Source: Acidimicrobiales bacterium (lineage in GTDB: Bacteria > Actinomycetota > Acidimicrobiia > Acidimicrobiales > JAUTXP01). From it: a stretch of 64,000 nt of DNA. Of this stretch, positions 20,586-36,756 are shown piece after piece (the stretch's first letter is position 1; each line of letters begins with the position of its first letter). The DNA is taken from assembly GCA_035651095.1 (NCBI GenBank), contig DASRGI010000263.1:1080-65079 (forward strand), in the 5' to 3' direction. The translations under genes were made by a program, and so were the position numbers. The notes beneath the pieces were generated by a model that was given only the letters and a program-made list of their open reading frames with translations, ran no database searches and was not told the DNA's origin.

Positions 20586-21110
20586 ATGAGGAAGATCCTC
20601 GCTCGGCTGGGCGTCTTCGCAGCCGTGCTGTCTACGGTGGCGATGCTGGTCCCCAGCTCCGCCTATGGCGCCAGCCAGGTGGCGGCAGGTGGGGTCGGGC
20701 ACGGCACCATCTCGCCCGGTTTGACCACGACCCCGACGGCCCAAAGCGTGTCGTTCCAGTCGGACGTCTTCATCGGCGGCGGCGTGAGCACGGACCCCAA
20801 CGCTGCTACAGGAACGGTGAACTGCACCTTCAACGGCAGCAGCACGTTGCCCGGTGGCGAGACCGTCGCCCAGGGCGGCGGCAGCGTCACCGGTAGCTGC
20901 ACCGTGGCCGCGGGTGTCGGTGTTGGCCAATCCGTCAACTGCACCGTCAGCTACTCGCGTGTTGGCAATGTTGTCGTCATCACCGTCAACTGCACGTTCG
21001 GTACGCACCACTCCACCGGTGGCGGCGTCTTCCTCTTCGTGCCGACGAGCGTCAACCCGACCACGTCGTACGAGTTGGTTGGCACAGCGGCTGCGGTAGG
21101 AACCGACTAA
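20586..21110 (+). CDS. secreted hypothetical protein with internal (V)NCT(F/V) repeats
   Basis: ATG 20586 is preceded by gggagga. Signal peptide MRKILARLGVFAAVLSTVAMLVPSSAYG. Contains three VNCT motifs plus one related GSCTV motif. Confidence 0.65.
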   Translation: MRKILARLGVFAAVLSTVAMLVPSSAYGASQVAAGGVGHGTISPGLTTTPTAQSVSFQSDVFIGGGVSTDPNAATGTVNCTFNGSSTLPGGETVAQGGGSVTGSCTVAAGVGVGQSVNCTVSYSRVGNVVVITVNCTFGTHHSTGGGVFLFVPTSVNPTTSYELVGTAAAVGTD

Positions 21111-21141
21111 CAACCTCTCCGTATGCAAGACCCGTAGCACA

Positions 21142-21170
21142 AGGGCCGGGGTGCAACGCACCCCGGCCCT
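21142..21170 (+). terminator. stem-loop downstream of the secreted-protein gene
   Basis: agggccggggtgc-aac-gcaccccggccct is a 13-bp perfect stem. The T tail is weak (tcaactt). Confidence 0.5.
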
Positions 21171-21675
21171 TCAACTTGCCGGCCAGCTACATCGGTGAGG
21201 GTGTGGGAGCCGTCCTCCCCGGCGGTGCTGGCCAGGTTCGAGGGAACCAGCAGCGTCCCTCTTGTGGCTCCAGGTCGGTTCGACCGGCCGTATGCCTGCG
21301 GCAGGTGCTGTCAGACCTAACCAACTGCGGTGCGGACCGTGAATGACGACTTGTGGGGAACGGTCTCACGGGCTGGCGTGCCCTGTCGGAAAAACCTCGA
21401 CACGCTGACCGATCGGCGACGTAGTAACAGGATGCAAGCGTTGCGCGCGTCCCTGCCTGGTGACGCCCGGAAGGACAGCATGACGAAGACCGCAGCTGCC
21501 GAGATCGACTGCACCCGAGGGTGCGATCGATGCTCGCTCCAAGATCACTCCAAGAACGCTCATGGTCGAACGCCATGCACCCGATGCACTCGGGAGCCGC
21601 GTTCCCTCCAGTTCACCAGTAGCCAGTCCCGTTGGTAACGCAGTTCTCAGCCACACTCAAACAATTCGAACTGAC

Positions 21676-24384
21676 ATGAAACTCATACGCGCAACCCATC
21701 CGCGGTCCCAACGTCTGGCCAGAATTGTCCGGATTATCACGTGCGGAATGCTCGTCGCTTCTGTCGCGGCGGGGATGGTAGCCCCGCGTGCGCGGGCTGC
21801 TGACGATGTCACCACCGTGGTTGGGACGTGGCACCCGACGAACCTACCTCCAGGCGTGGCGCCAGATCAGTTCTATCAAGAGGCGCAGTTGTATCCCGAC
21901 GTGGGCGGGCGGCGGCTCTACGTGTACGGAGCGGCGACCCACTGGTTTGCGGCCTATGACCTCGATTCGCTCCAACCCATCGGCGCGGGCCTCAAGCTCC
22001 CGGACACGGCGACTGCTTTCTACGTGGACCCTGTCGGGGGGCGAATATTCGTCGGGTTTCAGAACGACCTTACCCAGCAGGTCCATCTTGACGAGTTCGT
22101 GACGCGATCATCTGGCGTCGTCCGGGTGGCCACGATCGATCTCACGGCCCAGCTGTTGGCGCGCGCCATTGTCGGCATGTACCACGAATTGGGTACGGAT
22201 CTGATGTGGGTCTTGGCGAACCGGTCAGCCACGGGTAGCGGGGCTCCGGCCGTAGCGATCGGGGAGTTGGGGCTGCACGACTTCGAGACGGGTGGGAGCC
22301 ATGCTTGGCACTGGCAGACCCCGAAGGAACTGCCAGAATGTCAGTTCACGCTGCACAACAACCTGAATGTGGCTGCCGGCCTCGGCTACGAGCCCACGCA
22401 TCATTCGCTGTACTTCGGTTGTGGTAACCCGCCCCTGCAAGCTCCCGAGAAGGTGGCGCGAGGCGTCGGGCGCCTCGAGTTGAATATCGCTCCCGATGGT
22501 CAATCGACGACCCCCGGCAACATGGCCATGTTCTCTCACAGCGGCGATTTCGCCCAAGCCGACTCCCTCTTCGACCCCGTCTCTCGTCGATTGACGCTCT
22601 CGGCCTATGCGTCCGTGACGCAGGGTTCCACCGTCTTTGTCTTCGACACGGTCGGGGAAAAGTATGTGGGAGGCATCACGGCGGGAAGTCTGGCCATTGC
22701 GCAAGTCGGCCTCGATGCCGTTCACGGGCGGTTCTACGGAATGAGTCAGTGGCCGTACACCGGGCTCATTCTTGCCGATGTTCGAGCCACGCCCTCCACG
22801 CAGGGTGCATCTGTCCCAGCATTGGCAAAACACAACGGACACCAGCCAGCTGGGACCCATCTCGCATCTGACCCTCAGACTGGGCGCCTCTTCCTCAAGT
22901 ATTCCGCTGACACCGACTTTGTCATTGTTCGCGATAACCTGCCCCAGTTTGTGCAAGTTCCGCCGCTTGATGTCGATGCCAATACGGTTAATGTGCCTGA
23001 AGAGGCAGGCAAGACGCTGGCGACGTACTCCGGGGCATCCCAAGCATTCGGATCCCGTGTGCGACAGATCGGTGGTGCCGACGCCATCTTCGTCAATACT
23101 TCGGGAGTTACTGCACCGCTGCCCGTGGGCCCAGGCACCCGACAGTATGTCGGGGCCTACTTGAACCGCCTCCAGCTCGGCAACAACGAGTCCACTGCCT
23201 CGGCCATTGGTGCGGATACGGACACGGAGAACACGAAGGGCGATCTCAACAAGGCTGCAGCGCCACCGCCCCCTTCACCCCCCGACGGGACGCCGCCGCC
23301 ACCCCAGCCACCCGCAGGGACGCCACCTCCGCCCGTTGCTACGCCCAATCCATTTGAACCTGCAGCCGGCTGGCCGTACCTCGAAGCCTTGTGTTCCGAT
23401 TTCGGGGACACGCCTGGTGTCGATTCGCATCCTGGAGCGTCAGTGTCCTGCCACGCCTCTGAACACGTTGCCCAGGCCAGCGCCGCGGCGGGGTCTACTG
23501 ACGTTGGAAGCGCCGGTGTGGTGACGGTCGGGGTCAATGCCAGTTCGTTCACCTCCCATCTCACCCTCGATCCGGACCACGGTGTTGTCACCGAGGTGAG
23601 CGCGTCAAGTCGAGGAATCAGCTTGTTGAACGGCCGCCTTCACATCGGTGAAGTGGCGTCAGTGGCCCGAGCGCAAGCGCGTGGGCGACCGGGGACCACC
23701 GCGTCGTCGTGGTCGCGCACGGTCAAGAACGTGACTTTGGATGGCAATACGCTCTGCGGCGACCCGTGTGATATCCAAGCTCTCGCCGCGCAACTCAACG
23801 GCAGCTTGGTTGGCCTGGCGAAGGTTGACTTTCCTACGCCTCAGCCGAACACTGCCTCGAAAGGTGGGTACGAGGCGACCGTCCGAATCGACCCTTTGGA
23901 GCATGTCGAGGATGTCCTCGTGAACGAACAGCCTGATGACCGCATCGAGGTTCCCGGCATGGTCGTGACCATTTTCCAGGATGGGTTCAAGCCATCGCGG
24001 ACGATCGTTGACTTTGCGGGGGTCGAGGCCGAGGCTCGATATGGCATCTCACTCGTTGAGCAGCCTGGAGGCTCCCTGTCAGGTGGACCCCTGCCTGTTG
24101 CGGATTTGTTGGCCGGCAACGTTCCAGGAGTTGGTCAGGGTCCGATCTTCGGGATCGAGCCGGGCGCGGCGGGCGATCTGGGGCCGGCCGCGCCTCTGGG
24201 CCGGCCCCGCCAACTTGCGTTGGGAAGCCCTCTCAATGGCCCAGGGCGCATTCTCATGAACGGTCTCCGACGTGTGGCGGCGCTGCTGCCTATCTGGGCG
24301 TTGCTCCTGATCCCGATCTACCTCTCCGCCCGACGGTGGCTCTTACTGCAACGCGGTGGCCTTATTCTTGGAGGGAAGCCTTGA
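21676..24384 (+). CDS. large exported/anchored hypothetical protein (902 aa) with proline-rich linker and C-terminal TM helix
   Basis: ATG 21676 in track ORF 21562..24384. N-terminal signal/anchor IITCGMLVASVAAGMVAP, PPPPSPPDGTPPPPQPPAGTPPPP linker, C-terminal LLPIWALLLIPIYL. No family recognised. Confidence 0.7.
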   Translation: MKLIRATHPRSQRLARIVRIITCGMLVASVAAGMVAPRARAADDVTTVVGTWHPTNLPPGVAPDQFYQEAQLYPDVGGRRLYVYGAATHWFAAYDLDSLQPIGAGLKLPDTATAFYVDPVGGRIFVGFQNDLTQQVHLDEFVTRSSGVVRVATIDLTAQLLARAIVGMYHELGTDLMWVLANRSATGSGAPAVAIGELGLHDFETGGSHAWHWQTPKELPECQFTLHNNLNVAAGLGYEPTHHSLYFGCGNPPLQAPEKVARGVGRLELNIAPDGQSTTPGNMAMFSHSGDFAQADSLFDPVSRRLTLSAYASVTQGSTVFVFDTVGEKYVGGITAGSLAIAQVGLDAVHGRFYGMSQWPYTGLILADVRATPSTQGASVPALAKHNGHQPAGTHLASDPQTGRLFLKYSADTDFVIVRDNLPQFVQVPPLDVDANTVNVPEEAGKTLATYSGASQAFGSRVRQIGGADAIFVNTSGVTAPLPVGPGTRQYVGAYLNRLQLGNNESTASAIGADTDTENTKGDLNKAAAPPPPSPPDGTPPPPQPPAGTPPPPVATPNPFEPAAGWPYLEALCSDFGDTPGVDSHPGASVSCHASEHVAQASAAAGSTDVGSAGVVTVGVNASSFTSHLTLDPDHGVVTEVSASSRGISLLNGRLHIGEVASVARAQARGRPGTTASSWSRTVKNVTLDGNTLCGDPCDIQALAAQLNGSLVGLAKVDFPTPQPNTASKGGYEATVRIDPLEHVEDVLVNEQPDDRIEVPGMVVTIFQDGFKPSRTIVDFAGVEAEARYGISLVEQPGGSLSGGPLPVADLLAGNVPGVGQGPIFGIEPGAAGDLGPAAPLGRPRQLALGSPLNGPGRILMNGLRRVAALLPIWALLLIPIYLSARRWLLLQRGGLILGGKP

Positions 24385-25907
24385 AACGCAGTGACCCTGC
24401 AGTGGGGAGCGCCCTGTTGACGCTCGGGGTGATAGTCGCAGCTGGTGTGCTTCTGTCGCTGGTGACCATCGTTCCTTCAGGAAGTGGCTCCGGTCAGGGC
24501 GGCGCCCAGATTGCAGCAGCAGGCGACGCGGGTGGGCCGGGTGCGCAGGACGCGGGCACCGGTCCGGCAACGAATGGTGCGACGTCTCAGGCAGCTGGAT
24601 CTGGCGCCACCCAGGCGGCAGCCGGCGCAGCCGCCGGTGGACAAGCGTCGGGCATCGCCAAGTCGACCCCTGTCAGCCTTTCCTGCGCAGCAGGCTCCAA
24701 TGGAGGCAACACTGATGTCGGCGTGTCGGCATCGTCCATCAAACTTGCCGCTACGGTCGTGGCCGATGGCCCGGGCTCGAGCTTCCTGGGACCGGTTCGG
24801 ACCGGAATCACCACCGTGCTCGACAAGATAAACAATAGCGGTGGAGTCTGCGGACGGCGGCTCGACCTCACGCTCCGGAACGACTCGTGGGACGCGGCCC
24901 GGGGTAAGCAATACATTCAGAATTTCGTGGAGGGCGACAAGGTATTTGCTCTCGCCGTGGTGCCCTCGTCGGAGGGTCTTCGAGAAGCTGACGCCTACAT
25001 CCAGCAACAGAAGGTTCCGGTTGTCGGGACCGACGGCATGCTGATCCATCAGTATAAGAATCCCTGGATCTGGCCTGTTGCCACGTCGACCATCTCAACC
25101 ATGCACGCCATGGCGAAGAATGCTGCCGATCGGGGAAGCAAGCGTTTCGGAATCGTCTTTGACGCCCAGTACCACTTTGGAGTGGAAGGCGCCTTCGCAT
25201 TCAACCAGGCTGTCAAGCGCCTTACGGGCGACAACATTCCAGGCTTCGACTCTCAGTTGAAGAGCTGCACTGGGCGCTTCTGCGGGATCCAGCCGGGCAA
25301 ACCGAGTTACAGCGGTGATGCGAAGCAGTTCAATGACGCGTGCTTCTCCGGCGCGGGCACCTGCGACTTTATCGCCTACCTGCTCGAGCCCGATACGGCA
25401 CTCAGTTTTCTTCGAGAGGGCCGGCCCGCTAACCCCCAGATCGGATTTGCCGGCGCACAACCTCTCTTTACCCGTCCGTTCGCGGAAAATTGCCAGCGGC
25501 CATGTGACGGCATGTGGGTGTGGACCGGTTACAACCCGCCCCTTGAATCTCTGGCGAGTGATCCCGACGTCGCACGTTACGTCAACGAAGTGCATCAGGA
25601 GTCTGCCTCGGCGGACACGACCAACCAATTCCTTGAGGGCGGCTACATCGGCATGTCGCTCATGGTCCAAGCACTCCAGAAGGTCGGTCCAGCGCTCACG
25701 CGTCAAAACCTCAAGAATGTCTTGGACTCGATGACCTTCTCGAGCGGCTTGACCAGTCCGCTCGCGTGGAGGCCCGGGAACCACTTCGCGAATGTATCTG
25801 CCCAAGCGTTCGAGATTCAGTACAAACAGTCGTTCAACGGTTGGCGGAAGGCGACGTCCTTCATTGCCGACCCCTGGGTTGGCGAAGATATCCCGAGTGG
25901 AGAGTAG
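24381..25907 (+). CDS. ABC transporter substrate-binding protein (LivJ / branched-chain amino-acid type) with N-terminal TM anchor and Ala/Gly/Gln-rich linker
   Basis: TTG 24381 overlaps the upstream TGA. GGAGGG sits 5 nt upstream. An alternative ATG 24336 is in frame. The body resembles type I periplasmic binding proteins. Confidence 0.75.
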   Translation: MKRSDPAVGSALLTLGVIVAAGVLLSLVTIVPSGSGSGQGGAQIAAAGDAGGPGAQDAGTGPATNGATSQAAGSGATQAAAGAAAGGQASGIAKSTPVSLSCAAGSNGGNTDVGVSASSIKLAATVVADGPGSSFLGPVRTGITTVLDKINNSGGVCGRRLDLTLRNDSWDAARGKQYIQNFVEGDKVFALAVVPSSEGLREADAYIQQQKVPVVGTDGMLIHQYKNPWIWPVATSTISTMHAMAKNAADRGSKRFGIVFDAQYHFGVEGAFAFNQAVKRLTGDNIPGFDSQLKSCTGRFCGIQPGKPSYSGDAKQFNDACFSGAGTCDFIAYLLEPDTALSFLREGRPANPQIGFAGAQPLFTRPFAENCQRPCDGMWVWTGYNPPLESLASDPDVARYVNEVHQESASADTTNQFLEGGYIGMSLMVQALQKVGPALTRQNLKNVLDSMTFSSGLTSPLAWRPGNHFANVSAQAFEIQYKQSFNGWRKATSFIADPWVGEDIPSGE

Positions 25908-25913
25908 AGAGCG

Positions 25914-28900
25914 GTGCTCGTAAAATTTGGTCTCTATCTGTTGCTCTCGCTCCCGCTCATCGGCGCCTATGCGATGCTCGCCATCGGAATCGTCGTTGTC
26001 TTCCGAGCGTCGAAGGTTCTGAACCTCGCCCATGGTGCCATGGCAATGCTGCCGGCCTATATCACGTATGAGGCTTCAAAGCGGGGCATTTCCATGTTCT
26101 TCGCCGTACCCTTGGGTGTCGGCGCCGGGGCTCTCTTGGGGATGGCGACGGAACGGCTGTTCGTCCGGCCTCTTGCACGGCAGGGGGCCACCGCTCAGAC
26201 GGTTGGCACCGTTGCCGTGTACGGACTCGTTGTGGCCGGGGCGGCCCAGATTTGGGGCTCGGGCTCAAAAACTGCTCCGCTCGTATTCCCGGCCGGGGGT
26301 GTGCACGTGGCAGGCGCACTGCTTCGATGGGGCCAGCTCGGACTGTTCACGGTCGCGCTCGCGAGCGCGGCCGGATTCTATGCCTTGTTCCGCTTTACTG
26401 GCATCGGCCTCGCCATGCGTGGTGCCGCCGAGAACCCGAGGGCCGCCGGCCTGATGGGAATCAACCCGGAGCGAATGGCCCGATTCGCGTGGATGCTCGG
26501 AGGATCGCTGGCGGCCCTTGCCGGCATTCTGTTGGCGTCCGTCACCAACCTGCAGCCGTACTCACTGTCGCTGCAAATGTTGCCCGCGTTCGTGGCGGCA
26601 CTCGTGGGCGGCTTTGGCAGCCTTCTCGGGGCCCTCGCGGGCGCATTCGCGGTCGGTGTGGCTGAGGGCATGGTTCCGGCGTTCAGCCTCGTCCCGGGAA
26701 TTCGTCGTATCGCAACCCAAGTCGGCATGCCACAACTCGTGCTTACGGTGCTCGCTCTCGGAGTCATGTACTACCGAGGTAGCAAGTTCTCGGTCGGGGA
26801 CAGCAGGGCTGCGTTGGCAGGAGACGCCGATGCGACGCCGATTCATACGGCCTTCGACACCTCAAGGCTCCCTCGAAGGGGCGGAAGCAAGCGTCTATTG
26901 AGGTATGCCATACTGCTCTCATTGCTCGCGTGGCCCTTCTTTGGCGTCCCGAGTTTTCTACATCCCCTGGATACGTACTCGCTCCTGGGCGACGCGATAC
27001 TCGCCGGTGGCTACTTCATCGCCGCGTCGTCGATCGTCATGTTGACCGGCTGGGTGGGCCAGATCTCGTTGTCTCAAGCGGCATTCGTCGGTATCAGTGC
27101 ATTCAGTTCTGCCTTGCTCTCACGACATTACGGGATCGGCTTCCCATTGAGCTTGATCGTCGGGGCCTGCATGTCGGCTTGTGCGTCGGCAGTCCTCGGA
27201 GTCGTGGCGCTTCGTGTCCGAGGCCTGTACTTGGCGGTGGCAACGCTGATCTTTGCCTGGATGGCCGACGAGTACCTATTCATAGTGCCCTGGTTTGCCG
27301 GCAAGGGCGGGAGTGCAGCGATCAAGAACCATCCCGTCGGAGTGCACGGCGCGTTTCCGTATTTCGACTTTAGCGATCGGCGAACGTTCTATTTTGTAAT
27401 GATCGCGGCCGCGTCGTCGGTTTTATTTGGATTGCTCAATCTACGCGACTCAAAGACCGGGCGAGCGTTCTTCGCGATCCGAGGTTCGGAGTCCGCCGCA
27501 GCCTCACTCGGTATTGATGTCATCCGATATAAGCTCGTCGCGTTCGCAACGGCGGGCTTTGTGGCTGGCATTGCTGGGAACCTCATTCTGACTCACCAGG
27601 ATACGGTTGTTCCCGACCAGTTTTCCCTGAAGGTCTCCCTCCTCTTTCTAGCGATTGCTGTGGTTGGTGGCCTACGAAGCCTCCACGGCACCGTGGCGGC
27701 GTCGGTTGTCTTTGCTGCTCTGTCCGAGCTGTTCTTTCGTGTCCCAGCTCTCGGAGAGTACCTTCAACTTGTCTCGGCGCTGCTCCTTGCTGTGATCTTG
27801 TTGGTGTATCCCGGGGGCCTCGCGGCTGTGCCGCGGGATTTGCGGCGTGTGTGGCGTCGGATCGACGTGCTGCTGCAGCATAAGAAGACCGTCCCCATAC
27901 GAGATAGGGCCATAGCGTTCTGTCGACAGATGGCGAAGGGAGCCGAGGCGACGGAGGCGCTGATTGCCGAGCGGGTAGTCGCCGTACGCCAGGCGATTGG
28001 CCGGCAGATCGCCCGGGTGCCCGTGTTCCAGCGGGTGCCAGCCCTGGCGACGGTGGGAGCAGGCCCAACGGAGCGCAGGCTCACCGGCTTGGTGGTGCCC
28101 ATCGAGGATGCGCTTGCCGGACCCCTGGGACCCGGCGCGGACGCTGTCGAAGGTGAGAAGGACGTCGACGCGGACGCGCTTGACGTGGGTGGCGCGAATG
28201 GCGAATTGGAAGGTGGCCGGAAGTTGCACAGCATGCATGACCTGGGTCTTGACCTGAAGACGTCATACCAGGCTCGCGGTACGGTCATTCGGGCACAAAA
28301 CATCACGGTGCGCTTCGGCGGACTTACCGCTGTCAACGATGTGTCGCTGGAGGTCCGAGCCGGGCAGATTGTTGGCCTCATCGGGCCGAACGGCGCAGGG
28401 AAGACCACCCTGTTCAACGCCATCTCGGGGCTGAACAGTCCGACGTCGGGAAGCGTCAGCCTCTTCGGCGAAGATGTCACTGTCCTACCCGTCCACGAAC
28501 GTGCCGCGCGGGGCTTGGGCCGCACCTTCCAGGTGATTCAGCTCTTCCCCGAACTTACCGTCTTCGAGAACCTCCTCGTGGCAACCCACTTGCACAACCC
28601 CTCCACTTTGCTGTCGAACGTGGTGGTGACGGCGAAATCTGTACGGGCTGAGCTGGCCGCCGAGGAGACGTGTCGGCGCGTGGTGCGCTTTCTCGGTCTC
28701 GAGGAGATTGCTGACCGCCCGGTCGCCGGACTGCCGTTTGGCACGCTGCGCATGATCGAGATCGGCAGGGCGTTGGTTACTGGGGCGCCTGCACTCATGC
28801 TCGACGAACCCGCGTCTGGGCTCGACAATAGAGAGACCGACAAGCTGACTGAACTCCTTCTGTTCGTGCGCAACGAGCTGAACCTCTCGATTCTGCTCAT

Positions 28901-29090
28901 CGAGCACGACGTCCGCATGGTCACCGGCGTAAGCGACTACATGTACGTGCTGAACCGAGGGGTCATGCTAGCGGAGGGCAAGCCGGCCGATATCCAACGA
29001 GACCCTGCTGTTGTCGCGGCCTACTTGGGTGAGCCGATCTCGGATCGAGGCAGCGAGACCGATGTTGCCGAGGCGGAGGTAATGGCCTGA
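25914..29090 (+). CDS. fused ABC importer: LivH-like permease + LivM-like permease + LivG-like ATPase in one 1058-aa ORF
   Basis: No stop across the whole ORF. N-terminal permease LPLIGAYAMLAIG...NLAHGA. Second permease GWVGQISLSQAAFVGI. Walker A GPNGAGKTT, signature PASGLDNRE (degenerate LSGGQ position), Walker B LMLDEPASGLD. Confidence 0.85.
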   Translation: MLVKFGLYLLLSLPLIGAYAMLAIGIVVVFRASKVLNLAHGAMAMLPAYITYEASKRGISMFFAVPLGVGAGALLGMATERLFVRPLARQGATAQTVGTVAVYGLVVAGAAQIWGSGSKTAPLVFPAGGVHVAGALLRWGQLGLFTVALASAAGFYALFRFTGIGLAMRGAAENPRAAGLMGINPERMARFAWMLGGSLAALAGILLASVTNLQPYSLSLQMLPAFVAALVGGFGSLLGALAGAFAVGVAEGMVPAFSLVPGIRRIATQVGMPQLVLTVLALGVMYYRGSKFSVGDSRAALAGDADATPIHTAFDTSRLPRRGGSKRLLRYAILLSLLAWPFFGVPSFLHPLDTYSLLGDAILAGGYFIAASSIVMLTGWVGQISLSQAAFVGISAFSSALLSRHYGIGFPLSLIVGACMSACASAVLGVVALRVRGLYLAVATLIFAWMADEYLFIVPWFAGKGGSAAIKNHPVGVHGAFPYFDFSDRRTFYFVMIAAASSVLFGLLNLRDSKTGRAFFAIRGSESAAASLGIDVIRYKLVAFATAGFVAGIAGNLILTHQDTVVPDQFSLKVSLLFLAIAVVGGLRSLHGTVAASVVFAALSELFFRVPALGEYLQLVSALLLAVILLVYPGGLAAVPRDLRRVWRRIDVLLQHKKTVPIRDRAIAFCRQMAKGAEATEALIAERVVAVRQAIGRQIARVPVFQRVPALATVGAGPTERRLTGLVVPIEDALAGPLGPGADAVEGEKDVDADALDVGGANGELEGGRKLHSMHDLGLDLKTSYQARGTVIRAQNITVRFGGLTAVNDVSLEVRAGQIVGLIGPNGAGKTTLFNAISGLNSPTSGSVSLFGEDVTVLPVHERAARGLGRTFQVIQLFPELTVFENLLVATHLHNPSTLLSNVVVTAKSVRAELAAEETCRRVVRFLGLEEIADRPVAGLPFGTLRMIEIGRALVTGAPALMLDEPASGLDNRETDKLTELLLFVRNELNLSILLIEHDVRMVTGVSDYMYVLNRGVMLAEGKPADIQRDPAVVAAYLGEPISDRGSETDVAEAEVMA

Positions 29091-29827
29091 TGGCTCTCCT
29101 GGAGGCAGAGAACCTCGCCGTCTTCTACGGGCCTGTCCAGGCACTCCGGGGTGTAACTCTGCACGTCAACGAAGGCGAAATGGTGGCGCTTGTCGGCGCC
29201 AACGGGGCAGGAAAGACCACCACGCTCCGGACGCTTTCCGGGATGCTGGCGCCGAGGATGGGGACGATCACGTTCGATGGGGCACGAATCGACGGGGTGC
29301 CTCCGTTCGGTGTCGTCGAACGGGGCTTGGCCCATGTGCCCGAGGGCCGCGAACTGTTCTCGGCGATGACCGTAGAGGAGAACCTTCGCCTGGGGTTCTA
29401 TTCGAAGCGGAAGGCCAAGGACTTTGAGGCGCGCGCAGAGGAGGTCATGGGCCACTTCCCCATCCTTCAGGAGCGGGCGTCGCAGGCCGCAGGCACGCTG
29501 TCGGGTGGGGAGCAGCAAATGCTTGTGGTGGCTCGAGCATTGATGTCCGCGCCGCGGCTCTTGCTGGTCGACGAGCTCTCCCTCGGCTTGGCCCCGAAGA
29601 TCGTGACTCAGTTGTTCGACATCTTGCGCGCCGTCAACGAGCGAGGAACGGCCGTGGTGCTGGTAGAGCAGTTCGTGCACATGGCCCTGGGGAACACCGA
29701 CCGCGCGTATGTGCTCCAGAAGGGCGAGGTCGTGGTTGAGGGCCGCAGCCAGGACCTGCTTCACGACGAGTCCCTTGTGGCCTCGTACCTCGGCGAAGCA
29801 GAGATGGCGTCACACAACAGCAGGTGA
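29090..29827 (+). CDS. ABC transporter ATP-binding protein (LivF-like)
   Basis: 245 aa. Motifs GANGAGKTT, LSGGEQQML, LLLVDELSLGL. The ATG overlaps the upstream TGA by 1 nt. Confidence 0.9.
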   Translation: MALLEAENLAVFYGPVQALRGVTLHVNEGEMVALVGANGAGKTTTLRTLSGMLAPRMGTITFDGARIDGVPPFGVVERGLAHVPEGRELFSAMTVEENLRLGFYSKRKAKDFEARAEEVMGHFPILQERASQAAGTLSGGEQQMLVVARALMSAPRLLLVDELSLGLAPKIVTQLFDILRAVNERGTAVVLVEQFVHMALGNTDRAYVLQKGEVVVEGRSQDLLHDESLVASYLGEAEMASHNSR

Positions 29828-30233
29828 CTCTGACAGTTCGCCGCCGTGGACGGCGCGAACCAGAGGTCAGGGGTCGCAGGGGCGGCAACTCGGCCGCAAT
29901 CGATGCTGTCCAGACGTTCGAACGCGCCGCTTGAGGCCTCTTCGCGTCGCAGTCGGGGAGCGGTAGGTGGGGACAGGGATCCACCGCGCCGAGCACGGGC
30001 GCGCCGTCCTCACGGCGCTGGACGGTGGAGAGAGCCCTGCGAGCACTTCGACGCCCTGGTGGTGTCGAAGTGCTGTGTCGGCGCCTGCCGCCAGGTCAGC
30101 GAACCGGCCTGCCGTGTCGAACGTGGCCGAGGAGCTCGGGTGTGCTCATGGACTCATGGACGATGAAAGACGATGTGATCGAACGTGTCCGTGATGGCAC
30201 ACCACATCCGTCCGGGATGGTCTGAGACCACAG

Positions 30234-30462
30234 TGGTACGCCCGACGGGATTCGAACCCGCACCTTGCGGAGTACAAGTCCGCTGCTCTTAAGGCGGCAG
30301 TACGTAGCGCTCGGCAAGAGTAACGGCATGGCTAAATCCGTGCCATTGTGGCGTTCCTACACCGGGTGTTCCGTAGCACCGAGTGCAGGACCGTCCTCCC
30401 GATCCTGACTTGCCTTCACAACTACGCCTACGCCGCCCGTTGACCGATTGAGCTACAGGCGC
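30234..30462 (-). tRNA. tRNA-Thr(UGU)-like gene interrupted by a 152-nt insertion in the D loop (possibly a pseudogene)
   Basis: Minus sense reads GCGCCTG-TA-GCTC-AATCGGTCA-[152 nt]-GAGC-A-GCGGA-CTTGTAC-TCCGC-AAGGT-GCGGG-TTCGAAT-CCCGT-CGGGCGT-A-CCA. All four stems pair; the acceptor has 5 Watson-Crick and 2 G-U pairs. Confidence 0.6.
30289..30440 (-). other. 152-nt structured insertion inside the tRNA D loop (MITE-like element, small intron or RNA domain; nature unknown)
   Basis: The ends form an imperfect helix of about 14 bp (GGCGGC-GTA-GG-CGTAG with CTACG-TAC-T-GCCGCC). Internal hairpins: GGCAAG/CTTGCC, CAGGA/TCCTG, ATGGC/GCCAT. Flanked by TCAA and TTAA. Confidence 0.5.
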
Positions 30463-30931
30463 ATGTCTTACTGCAATTGGTGGGCCGCTCCGGTCGGCCC
30501 CGCTGGTGGATAGGTCCTCGATGCTCCTCACCGGAAGTATCGCTGTGTCTGCTCTGTACTACGTCGCCGCCGTGCTGTCGTGTCACGAATTGTTGTGGCG
30601 GCTCGGAGTTGAGCGGGTGCTTGGCATCGCTGGCCGATAGGCGACCGCAACTTGCCCCGGTCGGACATGACCATGCTGTTGACGCGATCCGCTCCGGCGG
30701 CCACATCGATGCGATCCGCAAGGCGTCGAGCACGTGCTCCGGGCGATCATCGACACAAAGGCGACCGAGCCCATGGAGCCGTGGACGATCGCACGCGCAC
30801 GGCCTGGTCAATGGCACCCGACGACCGGCTGCTGAGGACAAAGGCCGGATGACCCCTCGGAGGATCGCAGCCGACGGCACTTCTTCGCCACGACGCTGGG
30901 CGTCATCCTCGCACTCCGGCAGGACACGCCC

Positions 30932-32206
30932 TCACCCCCGAACGACAGGGTGCTCCATTGGGGGCGCGAATGTCTTCGCCCGGTGGAGACCCACGAAGCG
31001 GCCATAGGCATCGAGGTCGAGGTGGCCTGCGCCGGTGACCAGGGCCACGATCGACCGACGTGCCCCGCCCGCCTCCTCCGCCTTCCGGATGGCGGCCAGG
31101 AGCGTGTAGGTGGACTCTGGCGAAATCACGAGGCCTTGGAGACGTGCCAGGCGCAGGCCCGCCTGCATTGCCTCGCCCTCGTCATAGGCCTCGGCCTGCA
31201 CGCGACCGACGTGGACCTGGGCCGAAACCAGCGGGGAAGCAGCGTGGTAGCGCAGGCCGGAGGCGTGCATCGACGGGGGCCGAAAGTCGTAACCCAGTGA
31301 GTACATCTTGATCGGCGCCGCATCGCCCTCTCCGTCGGGATAATCGAAGTCGTACTTCCCGGCGGTGAGGGTGGGTATCGAGGTGGACTCCACAGCCACG
31401 ATCTCCGAACTCGGGTAGGCGTCGAGCAACGGAAACGCGAACCCGCCGAACGAGCTCCCGCCACCCACACAGCCGATGGCAACGTCGGGTTCAACACCGG
31501 CAGCCCGAAGCTGTGCAACCGTCTCCAGCCCGATCAAGCTGGCGTAGAGGAGGGTGAAGTCGAGCAGGCTGCCGGCGATGTTCATGCCTCCTGGGCGCGA
31601 CCGCAGCACATCGAACACCTCAGAGGTAGCAATGGCGATGGAGCCACTGTGCTCGCCTCGCTCGAGGAATCGGCGGCCTGCGGCGGTGGTGTCCGAAGGA
31701 GACGGGTGCACGACTGCGCCGTAGGCCTCCATCAACCGGCGCCGGAGCGGCTTGTCGTCGTGGCTGCTGCGGACCATGAAGATCTCGCACTCCAGCCCAG
31801 CGATGCAGCTGGCCAATGCCGCCGCCACACCGGTCTGGCCGGCGCCCGTCTCGGTGACGACGCTGTTCCGCCCTTCCTGGGCTCCGTAGTACGCCTGGGG
31901 AAGCGCGGAGGTGATCTTGAAGCTTCCGTTGGGGAGCAGGTCCTCGCGCTTCAGCCAGATCTCGCAGTTGGTACCGAGGTCACGCTCCAGGGCGGTAGCC
32001 CGCACGAGGGGGGTTGGCCGACCGACCTCGGCATAGCGTTGCCGGAGTCCGTCCGGGATGGCGATGGTGCGGTCGGTGGATTGTCCATGGGCGATGACCT
32101 GCTCGGGGTAGAGCCAACCGGCGTCGTCCGGGCGTTCATACTGATAGATCTCAGCTAACTGTTCGCGGGCGAAAAGCGACCGGGGGTTGAACCAGCGGTC
32201 GCTCAC
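30932..32206 (-). CDS. TrpB-like pyridoxal-phosphate-dependent enzyme (tryptophan synthase beta-like, type 2 family)
   Basis: Track ORF 30932..32251. GTG 32206 overlaps the upstream TGA (GTGA). PLP lysine context KREDLLPNGSFKITSAL. Phosphate loop GCVGGGSSFGG. Confidence 0.8.
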   Translation of the reverse strand: MSDRWFNPRSLFAREQLAEIYQYERPDDAGWLYPEQVIAHGQSTDRTIAIPDGLRQRYAEVGRPTPLVRATALERDLGTNCEIWLKREDLLPNGSFKITSALPQAYYGAQEGRNSVVTETGAGQTGVAAALASCIAGLECEIFMVRSSHDDKPLRRRLMEAYGAVVHPSPSDTTAAGRRFLERGEHSGSIAIATSEVFDVLRSRPGGMNIAGSLLDFTLLYASLIGLETVAQLRAAGVEPDVAIGCVGGGSSFGGFAFPLLDAYPSSEIVAVESTSIPTLTAGKYDFDYPDGEGDAAPIKMYSLGYDFRPPSMHASGLRYHAASPLVSAQVHVGRVQAEAYDEGEAMQAGLRLARLQGLVISPESTYTLLAAIRKAEEAGGARRSIVALVTGAGHLDLDAYGRFVGLHRAKTFAPPMEHPVVRG

Positions 32207-34893
32207 GTCGGCTCCTCGGGGCTGCAGGCGTCGCGGCATTGTTCGATGCAAAAGGCGTGCAACTCGTCGGTGGCCGCCCCGACAGTTCGGAACCTCCAGT
32301 TGTAGATCGTCTCGACCACATCTGTGGCGGCCGTCACTCGATCGAGGATCGGCTCACCCTCAACCGTGGTGACCAGGGCGCCGGCTTCCTCGGCGATGGT
32401 GGCGGCGGCCAGCACGTCGACTGTCTTGGCCGTATTGCTGAGGTCAACGAAAAGGCCAATGTTCCCGGTCGCCAAACAGCAGAGATCGAGAGCCGCACAG
32501 CCCATGGCCCGGAAGCTCGAGACCGCCCCAGCGACGGCCGACAGGGCGCCCAGTTCGGGCGTGGTACGCGAGAGGCCAACGAAGATGACATCCATCGCGC
32601 TGAGCTGCTTGGGTGCTCCCGCCGTTATCCGGCGACCGTTGCGGAACGCCCCTCTGCCGCGGATAGCCGAGTACTGCGTGCCGGTCGCCAGGTTGAGGAC
32701 GAGGCCTCCCAATACCGAGCCGTTGTCGGCAAGGATGGCCAGGGACAGGGCGTAATAAGACAGGCCCATCTTGTAGTTCTTGGTCCCATCGATCGGGTCG
32801 AGGACGACCGTGCATCCCTCGACGCCAAGGGGGATCACTCCCGACTCTTCGCTCAGCACCTGACGCACGCCGCCATGCCGGGCGAGGATGGCGACCACCT
32901 CGCCTTCGAGGACGCTGTCAATCTCGAAGCAGCGTTCGCCGAAGGCGTTATGGATGGCGCTCGGAATGCCCAGTCGAGGGGGCTCCGCCGCGAGACGAAC
33001 GAGCCGGTCGCCCTCCTTGGACACGGCGGTGATGAGGCTGGCGGTGGCGGCGCTCGCCTGGCGGCCGGGCGGCTCGCCCTGGGAGCGGAGGGAGGCGACG
33101 GGTTTGGCTGGCTCCAATCCCACGAGCCTCCGGGACGCCGACTCGGTGTCGGTTGTGACCCCTAAGGTGCTGCCGCCTCCGCTGAGGAAGCCAATGGCAT
33201 GGGCGAGGTCGATGTTCAGCAGGTGAAGGGCGCGGTGCATAACGATCCGAGTGGCCCGTCGAGTGTCGGGATCGAGGCCGCCGAGGCGGTCGCACCGGGT
33301 GACGTTGGCCGAGAGGTCCTCCAGGTGCCGCAGGAGCGCCGCCGGATTGCGCTCGTTAGCGCTTCGGCACACGACGTCGGGGAAGGCGTTCAGTGCGAAG
33401 ATCACGTCACTGGCTGCCTCGAAGGCTTCCGGATCGTCGGGACCGATGCCACCGACCTCACTCTCGAGGTCGACCACGGTCTTTACGAGCTGACAGAACG
33501 GTCGGCGCTGCTGCTCCCACAGGGCGCTCTCGTCGTACTCGACGGCGCGCTTACGAGGTTTGGCCAGAAGGGCATACTTCAGAAATGCCACGCCGAGTTG
33601 TTCGCACGTCTCCGAGAGACTGGTGTTGACCGGTCGGCCCTCAGCGCGAAGCAGTTCGATGAAGCAGTGGTAGAAGTGGTTCAGGGCATCGTCGGCTCGG
33701 ATGCCACTGCCCTGTCGTGACGACATGGCACCTGAGGGCGTGACCACCATGCCATGGCAAATGTTCTCCTGGGGCCAATCCAGCCCCACCGCCTTGAGCA
33801 GCTCGCCGTACATGATGGCCCCGGACTCCCACTGATCGCCGAAGAGCACGATATCGGTGTCGTAATGTGCCTGCGCGTGGCGGTCGTAGTCGACACCCAG
33901 CCATTGGGTGTAGACGACAGGCGTACCGTCCGAGCGCACAACGGTGAGTTCTCCATTCTCGATGTCGGGGATGTTCATGTACACCGAGCCATCCTCCCGT
34001 CGATGAAGCTGGCGCTTCTCCACCGCCTTGGCGATGATGTCCAGCCCGGTGGCGAGCGAAGCCGACTCGAGCAGGGCGAGATCGAGATGGGTTCCGATGC
34101 GCTCGTACGTAGCCTTTATGCCTTCCTCGCACCATTCGGTGATTCGGAAGATGAGCTGACGCGTCCCCTCGTTGCCCATATGTGCCCGGCGAAGGAGGGT
34201 GACGGCTTCCTCGTCCATCTTGGCCCGCTTCTCAGCCTGGTGGAATCCGACGTAGAAGTCGGCCACGAAGTGGTCGCCCTTCATCCCGACCGACGACGGA
34301 CTTCCCCCGTCACCGGCGTGCAGGTAGCCAACCGCGGCCTGGCAAATATGAATGCCCCAGTCGCTGAGGACTGAGATGCGCGTTACGTCAGACCCTTGTG
34401 ACTCCAAAAGCCGACTGATTGCCATGCCTAGGAAGTTGGTACGCAGGTGGCCAACGTGGAGAGCCTTGTTGGCGTTCGGATTTGAGAATTTCAGGGCGAT
34501 AGTCTGCGTGACAGGGGGTGTTGCTTGTCCGTACGAGCTGCCTGCGGCAATCACGCGGGGCACAACATGGGTGCGGAGCCAGTGGTAGTCAGGACGCACG
34601 TAGATCGACGGCGGGACCGGCACCGCAGCGGCGATTCCCGGCAACGAGTTCATCTGATCAGCCAGCTCGCGGAGCCAATTACGGTCGCGAGCCCGCTCGG
34701 GCACAAGGTCGCGCATGTCGAGTTTGAACGGGCCGGGCCGACCGGGACTCGACGGAACCTGTGTCACCGTCACCGGGACGCCTGCACGACCAGTGAGGTC
34801 GGCCACGGCGGAACCGAGCACGGCATTGGCCGGTCCCGGAACGGAACGGGCGCTCCCCGGCCCGGTCGATACAGCATTACTCATCGGGTCCAA
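32203..34893 (-). CDS. arginyl-tRNA synthetase-like protein fused to a C-terminal inositol monophosphatase-family domain (896 aa)
   Basis: ArgRS signatures FSNPNANKALHVGHLRTNFLG (HIGH) and GAMSSRQGSGI (KMSKS position), plus a DALR-like region. C-terminal IMPase motifs LSEESGV, VVLDPIDGTKNY, VDVLAAATIAEEAGA. The track start 34893 is TTG; ATG 34884 is an alternative. Confidence 0.8.
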   Translation of the reverse strand: MDPMSNAVSTGPGSARSVPGPANAVLGSAVADLTGRAGVPVTVTQVPSSPGRPGPFKLDMRDLVPERARDRNWLRELADQMNSLPGIAAAVPVPPSIYVRPDYHWLRTHVVPRVIAAGSSYGQATPPVTQTIALKFSNPNANKALHVGHLRTNFLGMAISRLLESQGSDVTRISVLSDWGIHICQAAVGYLHAGDGGSPSSVGMKGDHFVADFYVGFHQAEKRAKMDEEAVTLLRRAHMGNEGTRQLIFRITEWCEEGIKATYERIGTHLDLALLESASLATGLDIIAKAVEKRQLHRREDGSVYMNIPDIENGELTVVRSDGTPVVYTQWLGVDYDRHAQAHYDTDIVLFGDQWESGAIMYGELLKAVGLDWPQENICHGMVVTPSGAMSSRQGSGIRADDALNHFYHCFIELLRAEGRPVNTSLSETCEQLGVAFLKYALLAKPRKRAVEYDESALWEQQRRPFCQLVKTVVDLESEVGGIGPDDPEAFEAASDVIFALNAFPDVVCRSANERNPAALLRHLEDLSANVTRCDRLGGLDPDTRRATRIVMHRALHLLNIDLAHAIGFLSGGGSTLGVTTDTESASRRLVGLEPAKPVASLRSQGEPPGRQASAATASLITAVSKEGDRLVRLAAEPPRLGIPSAIHNAFGERCFEIDSVLEGEVVAILARHGGVRQVLSEESGVIPLGVEGCTVVLDPIDGTKNYKMGLSYYALSLAILADNGSVLGGLVLNLATGTQYSAIRGRGAFRNGRRITAGAPKQLSAMDVIFVGLSRTTPELGALSAVAGAVSSFRAMGCAALDLCCLATGNIGLFVDLSNTAKTVDVLAAATIAEEAGALVTTVEGEPILDRVTAATDVVETIYNWRFRTVGAATDELHAFCIEQCRDACSPEEPT

Positions 34894-35345
34894 CCCCCCA
34901 TGGCGGACATGCCCCGGCTACAGGCGCTCTGCGTCGAAAGTGTACAGAGGGATTCGACGCCTGGCCATTTGGCTATACGCGATCCATTCTGGCGTGGTTG
35001 TGTATGAGATTCTCCTCCAGATCTCGGGGTCGACGCTCCTTTTACTGCGCGGATCTGACCGGGGTGTGAGGCTTCGCTCCGCCAACTTGACGGGTGTCCA
35101 GGCCGGGTAAGTTCGGAGGATGAACCCGACACGCGCCGCGCTGGCCGGATTCGCGGCATGGCGGGCTGGGTGTGGAAGACCTTGGCAGCGAGCCGACACC
35201 TTGGCGGCATGCTGCGTGGACCAGATCGTGGCCTAGCACCGGCTCGCGTCACCACCAGCCGACCGAAGCGATGAACACCTCATCAAGCGGCCCAACTAGG
35301 ACCTATTCGCCGGTGTCATACGCGGCCGAAATTCGATGCGCCCGT

Positions 35346-36386
35346 TTATCGCGAGCTACGAGGGTCGGTGAGCCACGCCCGCAGCCCGGCGTGATACCGC
35401 TCGACGTCCACCTCCATTGCGATTGCCCATCTATTGGGGGAGATGCCATCTGTTGCCTTCGGATAGTCCGTCGGGCCCGGGCGACTGTCCCAGATCGTTT
35501 TGCGGGGAAGGCTGCGGTCGGCCACCGTGGCGCCCCACGCGATGTCGCCGCCCAGATCCACGGCCAGAGGCATGACTTCCCAGTCGCAGATGGAGGGGTC
35601 GTGTACGCACCACATGGCGAGCACATCATGGGCCGGCCATACGCCTGGCCGGCCAGTTTCGAGCAGGCCGGTAGGCCAGACTGCAGAGAAGATGCGGTGC
35701 ACGAGCGCGGCGCCCGCCAGTGAGGACCTTCCCAGCGCCGCAAGCTCGACCTGTGTCAGGGCACTGGGCCGGGTAACGTCGAGTGGGACGAGACGGGGAG
35801 GTTGGCCACCGCCGAGGACGCCCGGTACCCCGAACGCCTCTACCACTTGGGCTGCTGCGGCCGGGTCGTGAGCAACGTTCGACTCGGCCGCGGGCGTGAC
35901 GTTTCCTCCGACGGCAATAGCGCCGCCCATGACCACGAGGCCAGCCAGGTTTCCCGGGAGCGCAGGATCGAGCGCCAAGGCGGCGGCGACGGTGGTGAGA
36001 GGAGCGAGCGCGACGAGGGTGAGTTCGCCCGGCGCTTCGGCGGCCCGGCGCACGATGGCCTCCGCTGCTGGCTCAGGGTCGATTGGAGAGGACGGATCCT
36101 CCAGCCCTTCGATGTTGCCAAGGCCATCACGACCCATGACCTCGTCCGCGGGGAACTCGAACGGGGCAGGTGCTGACGGTCCCTCTGCGCCGAGGTATAC
36201 AGGAACGCGTGCGCCGGCGGCGTCGAGCACGACACGCGTGTTGCGGGCGACCTGCTCGCGCCGGCAGTTCCCCCATGTGGCCACGACGCCCTCGAGTACC
36301 AAAGCCGGGTGATTGGCGGCAAGGAACAGGGCACCGGCGTCGTCCGTTCCCGTGTCGACGTCGAGCAGGACGCGTCGTGGACTCAC
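35346..36386 (-). CDS. nucleoside hydrolase (IUNH family)
   Basis: Last 346 aa of track ORF 35346..36590, from GTG 36386. N-terminal DVDTGTDDAGAL is the DxDxxxDD motif. Confidence 0.8.
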   Translation of the reverse strand: MSPRRVLLDVDTGTDDAGALFLAANHPALVLEGVVATWGNCRREQVARNTRVVLDAAGARVPVYLGAEGPSAPAPFEFPADEVMGRDGLGNIEGLEDPSSPIDPEPAAEAIVRRAAEAPGELTLVALAPLTTVAAALALDPALPGNLAGLVVMGGAIAVGGNVTPAAESNVAHDPAAAAQVVEAFGVPGVLGGGQPPRLVPLDVTRPSALTQVELAALGRSSLAGAALVHRIFSAVWPTGLLETGRPGVWPAHDVLAMWCVHDPSICDWEVMPLAVDLGGDIAWGATVADRSLPRKTIWDSRPGPTDYPKATDGISPNRWAIAMEVDVERYHAGLRAWLTDPRSSR

Positions 36387-36756
36387 GATGCCGGGATTCG
36401 TCTCGCGCTCACCGATCGAGGTCCCGCCACGCCGTCTCGGGAGACGGCAGCGATGGCCCTTGCCAGCGCCCGGACTGCATGACGCACCGTTCGCATGGAT
36501 CCGGACACTACGCCCAGGCAGTCGGCTTCCACTTTTCGCGTGGGCCGTGAGCAAGCGTCGGGATACGGGAAGTCCGGCGATGCCGGGCATGACTCACTGC
36601 CCCCCGCCACTCTGACGGCCTGGGGCGGCGCCACGACATGGTGGGTTCCGCGATGTCGGATGGGGACTGCGATCGAGTTCGTAAGGTGCATCCCGCCCTC
36701 ACTGTCTTAGCCGCACGTCGTATCGCACGTTCCCCTGGACCATGGCGAGCCGCTAT

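Follow-up and report, generated by a model that had tools for sequence, protein, structure and literature searches.

What is a transfer RNA (tRNA) gene whose D loop holds a structured segment of 152 nt: a broken gene, a gene with an intron, or a working RNA of unusual shape? The question is raised by a 64,000-nt stretch of DNA from an Acidimicrobiales bacterium (contig DASRGI010000263.1), called the window below. Positions 30462..30234 of its minus strand are a complete tRNA(UGU) cloverleaf with 152 structured nucleotides placed between D-loop positions 20 and 21. An earlier inspection of the letters alone (the sequence-only reading) had listed the tRNA elements and the insert on the minus strand, and all of them are present where it had put them. 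The RNA is probably a functional, structurally expanded tRNA that serves as private partner of a ligase derived from arginyl-tRNA synthetase (ArgRS) and encoded two genes upstream. Nucleotides of the window RNA are numbered such that nt i is coordinate 30463-i of the minus strand. The parts of the RNA are:

30234..30462, minus strand: entire tRNA-like gene, 229 nt including the encoded CCA, matched by the family covariance model
30456..30462, minus strand: acceptor 5' strand GCGCCUG (nt 1-7), with 30238-30244 as partner
30439..30453, minus strand: D-stem 5' strand GCUC (nt 10-13) and 5' part of the D loop, AAUCGGUCAAC, with A14, A15, G18 and G19
30292..30438, minus strand: extra arm (nt 25-171) of about 147 nt, closed by G25-U171, between D-loop positions 20 and 21
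30409..30437, minus strand: 5' strands of the trunk helices, P1 (nt 26-32), P2 (nt 36-45) and P3 (nt 49-54)
30293..30318, minus strand: 3' strands of the trunk helices, P3 (nt 145-150), P2 (nt 153-161) and P1 (nt 164-170)
30285..30291, minus strand: U172-A173-A21, followed by the D-stem 3' strand GAGC (nt 175-178); CCUUAAGAGC is the conserved 3' junction
30267..30283, minus strand: anticodon arm GCGGA-CUUGUAC-UCCGC, with the anticodon UGU at 30276..30274
Minus strand, present: variable loop AAGGU
30245..30261, minus strand: T arm GCGGG-UUCGAAU-CCCGU
30234..30244, minus strand: acceptor 3' strand CGGGCGU, discriminator A73 and encoded CCA

Outside the D loop, canonical dimensions were found (stems of 7/4/5/5 bp, a 7-nt anticodon loop and a 7-nt T loop). 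The acceptor helix GCGCCUG/CGGGCGU contains five Watson-Crick and two G-U pairs. The D loop measures 161 nt with the arm, versus approximately 7-11 nt in a canonical bacterial tRNA. The 152-nt insert as delimited by the sequence-only reading (30440..30289) is wider than the arm proper (30292..30438). In the native 64-kb window, neither a tRNA nor a transfer-messenger RNA (tmRNA) was called by ARAGORN. After deletion of 30289-30440, a check that the sequence-only reading had proposed, a 77-nt tRNA-Thr(tgt) with normal cloverleaf was called. In the fold of the full 229 nt, a long branched arm is enclosed by the cloverleaf (-97.9 kcal/mol; z = -2.3 relative to shuffles). Both results bear out the description as an intact tRNA(UGU) cloverleaf with a structured D-loop insertion. 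The Rfam tRNA model just reached its gathering score (30 bits), solely on 61 nt (30297..30237), and this partial match borrows the 3' strand of the arm as a false acceptor strand. Assignment as a tmRNA or a viral tRNA-like structure, for which a tRNA-like acceptor/T domain lacking a true anticodon arm would be expected together with a tag open reading frame or the setting of a viral 3' UTR, was rejected on the basis of the complete anticodon arm, the ARAGORN result and the chromosomal context.

Does this architecture recur elsewhere? Twelve further loci (designated by L numbers) were found in Acidimicrobiales, Frankiaceae, other Actinomycetota metagenome-assembled genomes and metagenomes. The arm is missing at 1 locus, is a 14-17-nt GNRA hairpin at 5 and spans 150-190 nt at 7. 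Contigs encoding the closest homologues of two window proteins, an ArgRS-derived fusion protein and a TrpB-like enzyme, led to L001, L002 and L012-L015. There, the TrpB-like gene is immediately followed in five further places (L001, L002, L012, L013 and L014/L015) by a homologous tRNA-like gene whose D loop bears a large insertion. The closest relative of the window RNA is that of L013 (anticodon UGU, 159-nt arm, A1-U72). The RNAs of L001, L002, L012 and L014/L015 carry the anticodon UAU and arms of approximately 190 nt. RNA and protein relationships disagree at L012: its fusion and TrpB-like proteins are close to those of the window (78% and 84% identity), yet its RNA belongs to the UAU long-arm subtype and has different anticodon and T stems.

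The short form was represented by L004/L005, with an RNA of 90 nt (anticodon UGU) whose insertion is the GNRA hairpin ACGGGC-GAAA-GCCUUAA. ARAGORN miscalled it as tRNA-Leu(taa). Four more hairpin-arm members (L007, L008, L010 and L011), each followed by the same SbnA-like gene, were obtained by pattern scans of metagenome and genome collections, which carry no protein bias; the genome-collection scan yielded only two members. A third locus from the metagenome pattern scan (L009) was discarded as an unrelated AT-rich tRNA fragment. Two scans of viral contigs gave no family member (L020 scored only 12 bits). The Frankiaceae locus L006 (7700-7963; covariance-model match of 64.6 bits) has an arm of about 190 nt with the variant junction GAACGAG...CUCAAAGAGC. 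The RNA of L019 (9864-9938, minus strand; 82 bits) is an armless 75-nt member with the exact acceptor stem of the window RNA, anticodon UAA, a 5-nt variable loop and an encoded CCA. ARAGORN called it tRNA-Leu. CCA is also encoded in the window, L013, L007 and L010.

Cloverleaf statistics were computed on 10 distinct sequences, using the cloverleaf and four arm-base pairs. In total, 99.6% of base-pair cells were paired, a stem pair was broken in one cell only, and changes on both sides occurred at 5 pairs. The covariation score was 0.352, compared with 0.167 in shuffles (0/500 shuffles reached 0.352). With slid partners as control, pairing fell to 31-49%. Acceptor pairs are kept in all 10 sequences, with both-sided changes at pair 6-67, and both-sided changes affect 3/5 pairs of the anticodon stem. 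Invariant in 11 members are U8, A14, A15-U48, G18, G19, A21, G46, G53, U54, U55, C56, A58, C61 and A73. A covariance model built from eleven members matched the 64-kb window once only (30237-30462, 188 bits); this and the recurrence of the architecture at 12 other loci go far beyond chance. The two acceptor G-U pairs, which the sequence-only reading had seen as fitting decay, are no sign of it: G1-U72 is shared by ten other family members and is replaced by A1-U72 in L013.

The arm leaves the D loop after G18-G19-U20-C-A-A and returns before A21. As read directly from the sequence, this exit is the variable pocket, so that the elbow contacts remain feasible. None of the 22 trunk pairs in the minimum free energy fold of the window is broken in L013, where 17 are identical, 4 differ on one side and 1 shows a compensatory change, although the two arms are only 74% identical (26% divergence), versus 97% identity of the tRNA bodies. 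The distal hairpins differ by insertions and deletions between window and L013. The junction AACGGG...CCUUAAGAGC is common to the long-arm and hairpin forms, and its CCUUAAGAGC side is invariant in 11 aligned members. At L006, the pair G26-C170 of the window is replaced by A-U, and arms of the UAU subtype show both-sided changes at 15 predicted pairs. For this subtype, pairing of G18-G19 with the 3' strand of the arm was proposed by RNAalifold; it was rejected, as it leaves an uncompensated change in L014 and as the register is set by the hairpin-arm relatives. In the window arm, no Rfam family, intron or ribozyme was matched at E<=10, and none in the arms of L001-L003 at E<=1. A second copy of the arm was found neither in the 64-kb window nor in about 240 kb of related loci, where the syntenic L013 arm was the sole significant match. 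Neither a pseudogene in decay nor a mobile element inserted recently would show such a pattern; the arm is under selection. That the arm-bearing RNA is a conserved functional gene is well supported by these comparisons.

Which enzyme could use this RNA? A context that the sequence-only reading had not included lies immediately upstream:

30932..32251, minus strand: TrpB-like pyridoxal-phosphate (PLP)-dependent enzyme, immediately upstream of the RNA; Pfam PALP, NCBIfam NF009057 with 427 bits versus a cutoff of 366
32203..34893, minus strand: ArgRS-derived ligase fused to a phosphatase domain of the inositol monophosphatase (IMPase) family; the listed open reading frame (ORF) has 896 aa, the database protein P0001 867 aa
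35346..36590, minus strand: inosine-uridine-type nucleoside hydrolase, first gene of the conserved triad, with its start probably near 36383

In contigs encoding the closest homologues, the gene order is hydrolase, fusion, TrpB-like. The TrpB-like gene occupies the same position in L001, L002, L012, L013 and L014, and the nucleoside hydrolase is conserved in L001, L002 and L014. On the other side of the window RNA, a Liv-type ABC transporter is encoded. The IMPase-fusion gene lies in the same cluster as the RNA in the window, L001, L002, L012 and L014 (63-78% identity). More distant RNA-linked ArgRS paralogs were found at L004/L005 (36% identical), L006 (33%) and L019 (33%, 62 nt from the RNA). 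An ArgRS-derived gene adjoins the family RNA wherever the locus sequence extends far enough. The accompanying enzymes differ among L004/L005, L006, L019 and the window-type clusters. L004/L005 encode an SbnA-family PLP enzyme, an ATP-grasp ligase, an argininosuccinate-lyase-like enzyme, a GHMP kinase, homologues of a DTD2-type aminoacyl-tRNA deacylase and of a formyltransferase, and a polyprenyl synthase. At L006, the RNA lies 38 nt upstream of the ArgRS paralog, an AurF-type N-oxygenase is found nearby, and a PLP enzyme is absent. The L019 RNA is divergent from its ArgRS paralog and adjoins an aminotransferase and a tryptophan-dioxygenase-like gene; a baeRF-family gene is found at a distance of 3 kb. 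Window-type long arms co-occur solely with the TrpB-like/IMPase-fusion cluster, and arm motifs are subtype-specific.

At two loci, the TrpB-like/IMPase pair was found with neither an ArgRS-like gene nor a family RNA in the locus DNA examined (L016, from Paenibacillus polymyxa, and L017). At L016 (6215-12171), the TrpB-like homologue (56% identity) is part of an operon with separate IMPase and PNP_UDP_1 nucleosidase genes and with PRTase-like, dNK-like, AICARFT-like and aminotransferase genes; there is no tRNA. Its occurrence at L016 without ArgRS-like gene or tRNA suggests that the pair is an older module. At L018, an ArgRS paralog is fused to a lysine/ornithine N-oxygenase (6411-9464), and 8 kb away a MetRS-like gene lies beside a cupin gene (17684-19464), a pairing reminiscent of hydrazine-forming enzymes. 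At L001, genes of preQ0 synthesis (QueE-like radical SAM, QueC and QueD/PTPS; 14417-16069) are encoded on the opposite strand, 2.1 kb downstream of the RNA, at this locus only.

The fusion protein keeps the HIGH motif (as HVGH) and the MSSRQG loop. Its AlphaFold model has a predicted local distance difference test score (pLDDT) >90 over residues 40-540, whereas modelling of the IMPase part is poor. Entire ArgRS chains are matched by the model, best of all the yeast ArgRS-tRNA-Arg complex 1f7u (template modelling score 0.72, 582/606 residues). The superposition includes the N-terminal and anticodon-binding domains. The amino-acid pocket is altered. An acidic residue stands two positions before SxPN in 8 true ArgRS (E/D), versus K, S, V or Q in 15/15 paralogs covering the site. 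In alignment with yeast ArgRS, E148 is replaced by K, D351 by W and Q375 by W, and Asn153 is kept. The three replaced residues are reported to contact the arginine side chain (Cavarelli et al. 1998). Because pocket residues are replaced, it is very unlikely that the fusion enzyme uses arginine. It is plausible as a catalyst, yet is not an ArgRS. A role as resistant ArgRS copy that shields a cell from the ArgRS inhibitor it makes, as in tiarin clusters (bioRxiv 10.64898/2025.12.02.691738), was considered and rejected: arginine-binding residues are replaced, the linked tRNA is not tRNA-Arg, and tfx-like genes are absent.

The position of the arm can be compared with what ArgRS reads on its tRNA. 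In bacteria, A20 in the D loop's variable pocket is the main arginine identity determinant and is gripped directly by ArgRS (PMC9976931). ArgRS is also among the few synthetases that need tRNA (A76, D loop and anticodon arm) for adenylate formation (PMC9976931). An ArgRS paralog that turned to another substrate could therefore not dispense with a tRNA, and a private tRNA marked at the site read by the ancestral enzyme would be a natural outcome. The ligase is predicted to bind the RNA in the manner of ArgRS, with its N-terminal domain at the D-loop corner and its C-terminal domain at the anticodon. As with a true ArgRS, the RNA would be required for activation of the amino acid. A non-arginine amino acid would then be esterified to A76. 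The TrpB-like enzyme, the IMPase domain and the nucleoside hydrolase, all encoded nearby, would probably make this amino acid. Speculatively, a heterocycle could be freed by the phosphatase domain and the nucleoside hydrolase, and joined to serine or phosphoserine by the TrpB-like enzyme. The arm may act as an identity element specific to the lineage and may shield the RNA from housekeeping enzymes, at the very site where ArgRS reads its main identity nucleotide. It may represent a lineage-specific enlargement of an ancestral D-loop hairpin by which recognition surface was added.

Several observations weigh against such a private pair. L003, whose fusion protein is 77% identical to that of the window, and L018 carry no family RNA in the locus DNA examined. 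The anticodon differs between close relatives (UGU vs UAU), which is at odds with recognition simply by the anticodon. The arm is not found throughout the family (absent from L019, a mere hairpin at five loci) and hence cannot be the sole recognition element. An aminoacyl-RNA-consuming enzyme is not evident in the three-gene window cluster. A simple scan of the window locus for a sigma-70 promoter and a terminator found neither. A block about 100 nt upstream that is common to window and L013 (TGACAC..CGTAGTAC) was considered as promoter and was not convincing.

The anticodons were compared with codon usage. All anticodons of the family (UGU, UAU and UAA) read A-ending codons that are rare in these genomes: in related loci, ATA occurs at 0-0.4 and ACA at 1.3-2.7 per 1000 codons. 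Anticodons for rare codons fit either an RNA kept away from translation or a deliberate use of rare codons. Within the window, ACA accounts for 10 of the 1752 codons in the three cluster genes (30932-36590), versus 1 in 3233 codons of five neighbours. The L002 cluster genes are equally enriched in ACA though the RNA of L002 has the anticodon UAU; the window bias therefore probably reflects foreign composition of the cluster. In clusters with UAU RNAs, ATA was found once in about 1700 codons of L001 and not at all in L002.

A short ORF of 30-32 codons was observed 52-66 nt upstream of the RNA at the five hairpin-arm loci (L004, 941-1039; L008, 1551-1643; L011, 6581-6673; L007 and L010, minus strand, 52-55 nt upstream). 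The encoded peptides end in R-[R/E]-R-T-(S or F-x-S)-R-T-stop, with the codons CGA-ACA-(UCG or UUC-xxx-UCG)-CGA-ACA-stop and the nucleotide motif CGAACAT..CGAACATA[AG]. Both terminal threonines are thus encoded by ACA and the preceding arginines by CGA, and other threonine codons in these ORFs are ACG, ACT or ACC. The CGA-ACA motif is absent from the 64-kb window. The ORFs may specify a precursor or leader peptide that is linked to the UGU tRNA. Their endings hint that hairpin-arm RNAs meet the ribosome, as sensor or as decoder.

Could the arm be an accident, or be lost from the mature RNA? Disruption of a tRNA-Thr gene by a miniature inverted-repeat transposable element (MITE)-like insertion, which would leave a pseudogene, had been suggested by the sequence-only reading from the pairing of the insert termini with each other and from T[C/T]AA on both flanks. 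The flanking TCAA and TTAA are real; their reading as marks of a mobile element fails, as they belong to the conserved D-loop residues GGUCAA and CCUUAA, differ from each other and form no target-site duplication. The insert is single-copy in the window and the related loci. The closest relative, L013, where an uninterrupted tRNA had been sought at the syntenic site, carries a diverged arm there instead of an empty site. Distant genomes carry, at this one site, arms that differ in sequence and length and show compensatory changes, and the stem pairs are intact in all members but one cell while the body has stayed almost constant between window and L013. We regard a pseudogene as hardly credible. 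Removal of the arm after transcription, as a new intron or by RNase III-type cleavage, would leave a 77-nt or two-piece tRNA. It would agree with the acceptance of the deleted sequence by ARAGORN, with the viability of an armless form in the same lineage (L019) and with a trunk helix of about 22 bp, of the kind cut by RNase III. The small novel intron of the sequence-only reading nevertheless found no support: no group I or II intron or self-cleaving ribozyme was matched in Rfam at E<=10. The insert is not in the anticodon loop, has no U at the 5' junction, no terminal G and no bulge-helix-bulge, and it stands in a bacterial genome. In five relatives, the same conserved junction bears a GNRA hairpin of 14-17 nt; as this is too small for an intron, the junction nucleotides are part of the mature RNA. 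Removal of the arm is accordingly considered quite unlikely. The third suggestion, a tRNA-scaffolded RNA domain, came closest to the evidence.

Other readings accept the arm as part of a working RNA and differ in what is done with it. A non-acylated tRNA mimic, acting as allosteric cofactor, as scaffold for ligase, TrpB-like enzyme and hydrolase, or as pathway-sensing regulatory RNA, would account for the co-occurrence of subtype-specific arm motifs with particular enzyme sets. tRNA indeed serves ArgRS-type enzymes as activator (PMC9976931). We give such a mimic little credence, since the acceptor stem, A73, CCA (where encoded) and all L-shape nucleotides are conserved, as expected for a 3' end that enters an active site. 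In a comparably improbable case, the RNA would be a bldA-like helper tRNA, charged with threonine by ThrRS and decoding the rare ACA codons of a horizontally acquired cluster, with the arm as tolerated baggage. The cluster does lie in a block of lower GC content, and 10/11 ACA codons in the eight window genes counted fall in its three genes. The ThrRS identity set comprises G1-C72, C2-G71, G35 and U36. C2-G71, G35 and U36 are present in the window RNA and fit this set (general identity sets are given in PMC9976931, Table 1). Pair 1-72 is however G-U (A-U in L013) instead of the G1-C72 used by ThrRS, and position 35 is A in close relatives of the window RNA. The equal enrichment of ACA in L002 and the near absence of ATA from clusters with UAU RNAs also contradict a helper role, which moreover leaves the covarying arm and the ArgRS-like linkage across very different clusters unexplained. 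In a bolder version of the private pair, the three enzymes would make a non-canonical amino acid, the ligase would load it on the arm-bearing tRNA, and the ribosome would use the charged tRNA at sense codons that are rare and end in A (ACA in the window, AUA and UUA in relatives). One example would be a beta-heteroaryl-alanine, for which the phosphatase and the hydrolase would free a nucleobase that the TrpB-like enzyme then incorporates. Such recoding is thought unlikely. If true, it would amount to a naturally occurring orthogonal pair and to a genetic code expanded at sense codons in Actinomycetota.

The private pair, which remains the preferred reading, was compared with known systems. tRNA architecture is among the most conserved in biology, and known departures from it comprise shortened mitochondrial tRNAs, tRNA-Sec, tRNA-Pyl, allo-tRNAs and long variable arms. 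The latter are read, in class II tRNAs, by SerRS and LeuRS. In tRNA-Sec, the D arm is read by SelA and PSTK (PMC7609411). The window RNA resembles tRNA-Sec and class II tRNAs (Ser, Leu, Tyr) in that an enlarged arm would mark a tRNA for its own enzymes; theirs, however, is a 6-bp D stem or a variable arm of <= ~20 nt, in contrast to a separate branched D-loop helix of up to about 190 nt. No separate branched D-loop arm is listed in a review of non-canonical tRNAs (PMC7609411). Non-canonical tRNA introns of archaea include some in the D loop, e.g. in tRNA-Thr of Aeropyrum pernix (PMC3241643). They share with the window RNA the extra sequence in the D-arm region, even of a tRNA-Thr. They differ by their bulge-helix-bulge, in which a 4-bp helix parts two 3-nt bulges at the exon-intron junctions and which is cut by the archaeal splicing endonuclease. 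The window RNA is bacterial, its junction is conserved in short-arm hairpins, and between D stem and arm base 11 unpaired nt on the 5' side and 3 on the 3' side are found instead of this motif. Group I introns of bacterial tRNAs lie in the anticodon loop, have a P3-P9 core, a U at the 5' splice site and a terminal G, and are usually >200 nt. The window insert, by contrast, has 152 nt in the D loop, junction nucleotides A/C and A/G, and no Intron_gpI match at E<=10. In the literature searched, no description was found of this RNA, of the gene cluster, or of a bacterial tRNA lineage with a covarying branched D-loop arm of up to about 190 nt. This agrees with the statement of the sequence-only reading that no class of such D-loop insertions is known.

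On the side of the enzyme, the partner has the complete ArgRS fold, and the distinctive feature of the RNA is situated at the D-loop pocket read by ArgRS. Unlike in the tRNA-Arg/ArgRS pair, the window anticodon is not one for arginine, A20 is replaced by the arm, and the enzyme is fused to a phosphatase and lacks the arginine-binding acidic residues. Gene co-location, as in an orthogonal pair, was found in the window, L001, L002, L012, L014, L004/5, L006 and L019 (exceptions, L003 and L018), and catalytic motifs and tRNA-binding architecture are kept with a changed amino-acid pocket. The pyrrolysine cassette pylTSBCD is likewise a compact cluster with an unusual tRNA, a dedicated synthetase and plausible enzymes for a special amino acid. 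The likeness ends with this layout: the present system differs from it by a sense-codon anticodon, a class I, ArgRS-derived synthetase and an added arm rather than a compacted core. Actinobacterial paralogs of aminoacyl-tRNA synthetases occur in metabolite pathways, as MshC and in VlmL/VlmA-type tRNA-dependent steps. MshC was among the distant fold matches of the fusion model. Common to these systems and the window cluster is a class I synthetase paralog in a metabolic cluster, and the link to an IMPase recalls the inositol-phosphate step of mycothiol synthesis; MshC and VlmL/VlmA-type systems, however, use housekeeping tRNAs or none, and none of them is known to have a structurally novel tRNA gene of its own. 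The bldA tRNA-Leu(UAA) of Streptomyces is another actinobacterial tRNA for a very rare A-ending codon, and L019 has the same anticodon. bldA is, however, a normal class II tRNA-Leu charged by LeuRS, in contrast to the L019 RNA with its 5-nt variable loop and family acceptor stem.

Further features were recorded in the window. The region 20000-36000 is a block of lower GC content (58-67% vs 70-75% in the flanks), contains the cluster and the Liv-type ABC transporter, and may be a horizontally acquired island. Two large ORFs in this block (20259-21110 and 21562-24384) gave no Pfam or NCBIfam matches. The upstream 283-aa and 940-aa proteins of the window were considered as members of the system and dismissed, being unrelated to the unannotated L014 proteins. 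An intergenic palindromic repeat of about 60 nt, GCGTTCTCGTAACGC...GCGTTACGAGAACGG, occurs in four copies (5108-5167, 50896-50955, 53631-53690 and 61877-61936) and may be an operator or an element of the repetitive extragenic palindromic (REP) type. A match to the Rfam cspA thermoregulator was found at 13423-13776 on the plus strand (85.9 bits, above the gathering score), in an Acidimicrobiales genome. Tandem repeats with a 21/42-nt period lie inside a long ORF region at 40088-40316. A duplication of about 700 nt (14535-15234 and 16070-16757; offset 1.53 kb, 72-81% identity) probably represents tandem paralogous genes.

We rate the RNA as a structurally new variant of tRNA that has a dedicated partner of a new kind; its biochemical role is hypothetical. 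Standard tRNA finders miss or miscall these genes, which reveals a blind spot. If the pair charges a new amino acid, it would be an instance of tRNA as carrier in small-molecule biosynthesis or a natural recoding system, and genetic-code engineering would gain a class I pair that is orthogonal by nature. It would also make testable how an identity element grows at a site already read by the ancestral synthetase. For the actinobacterial family, the linkage to ArgRS paralogs with a rebuilt pocket points to private synthetase-tRNA pairs in small metabolic clusters.

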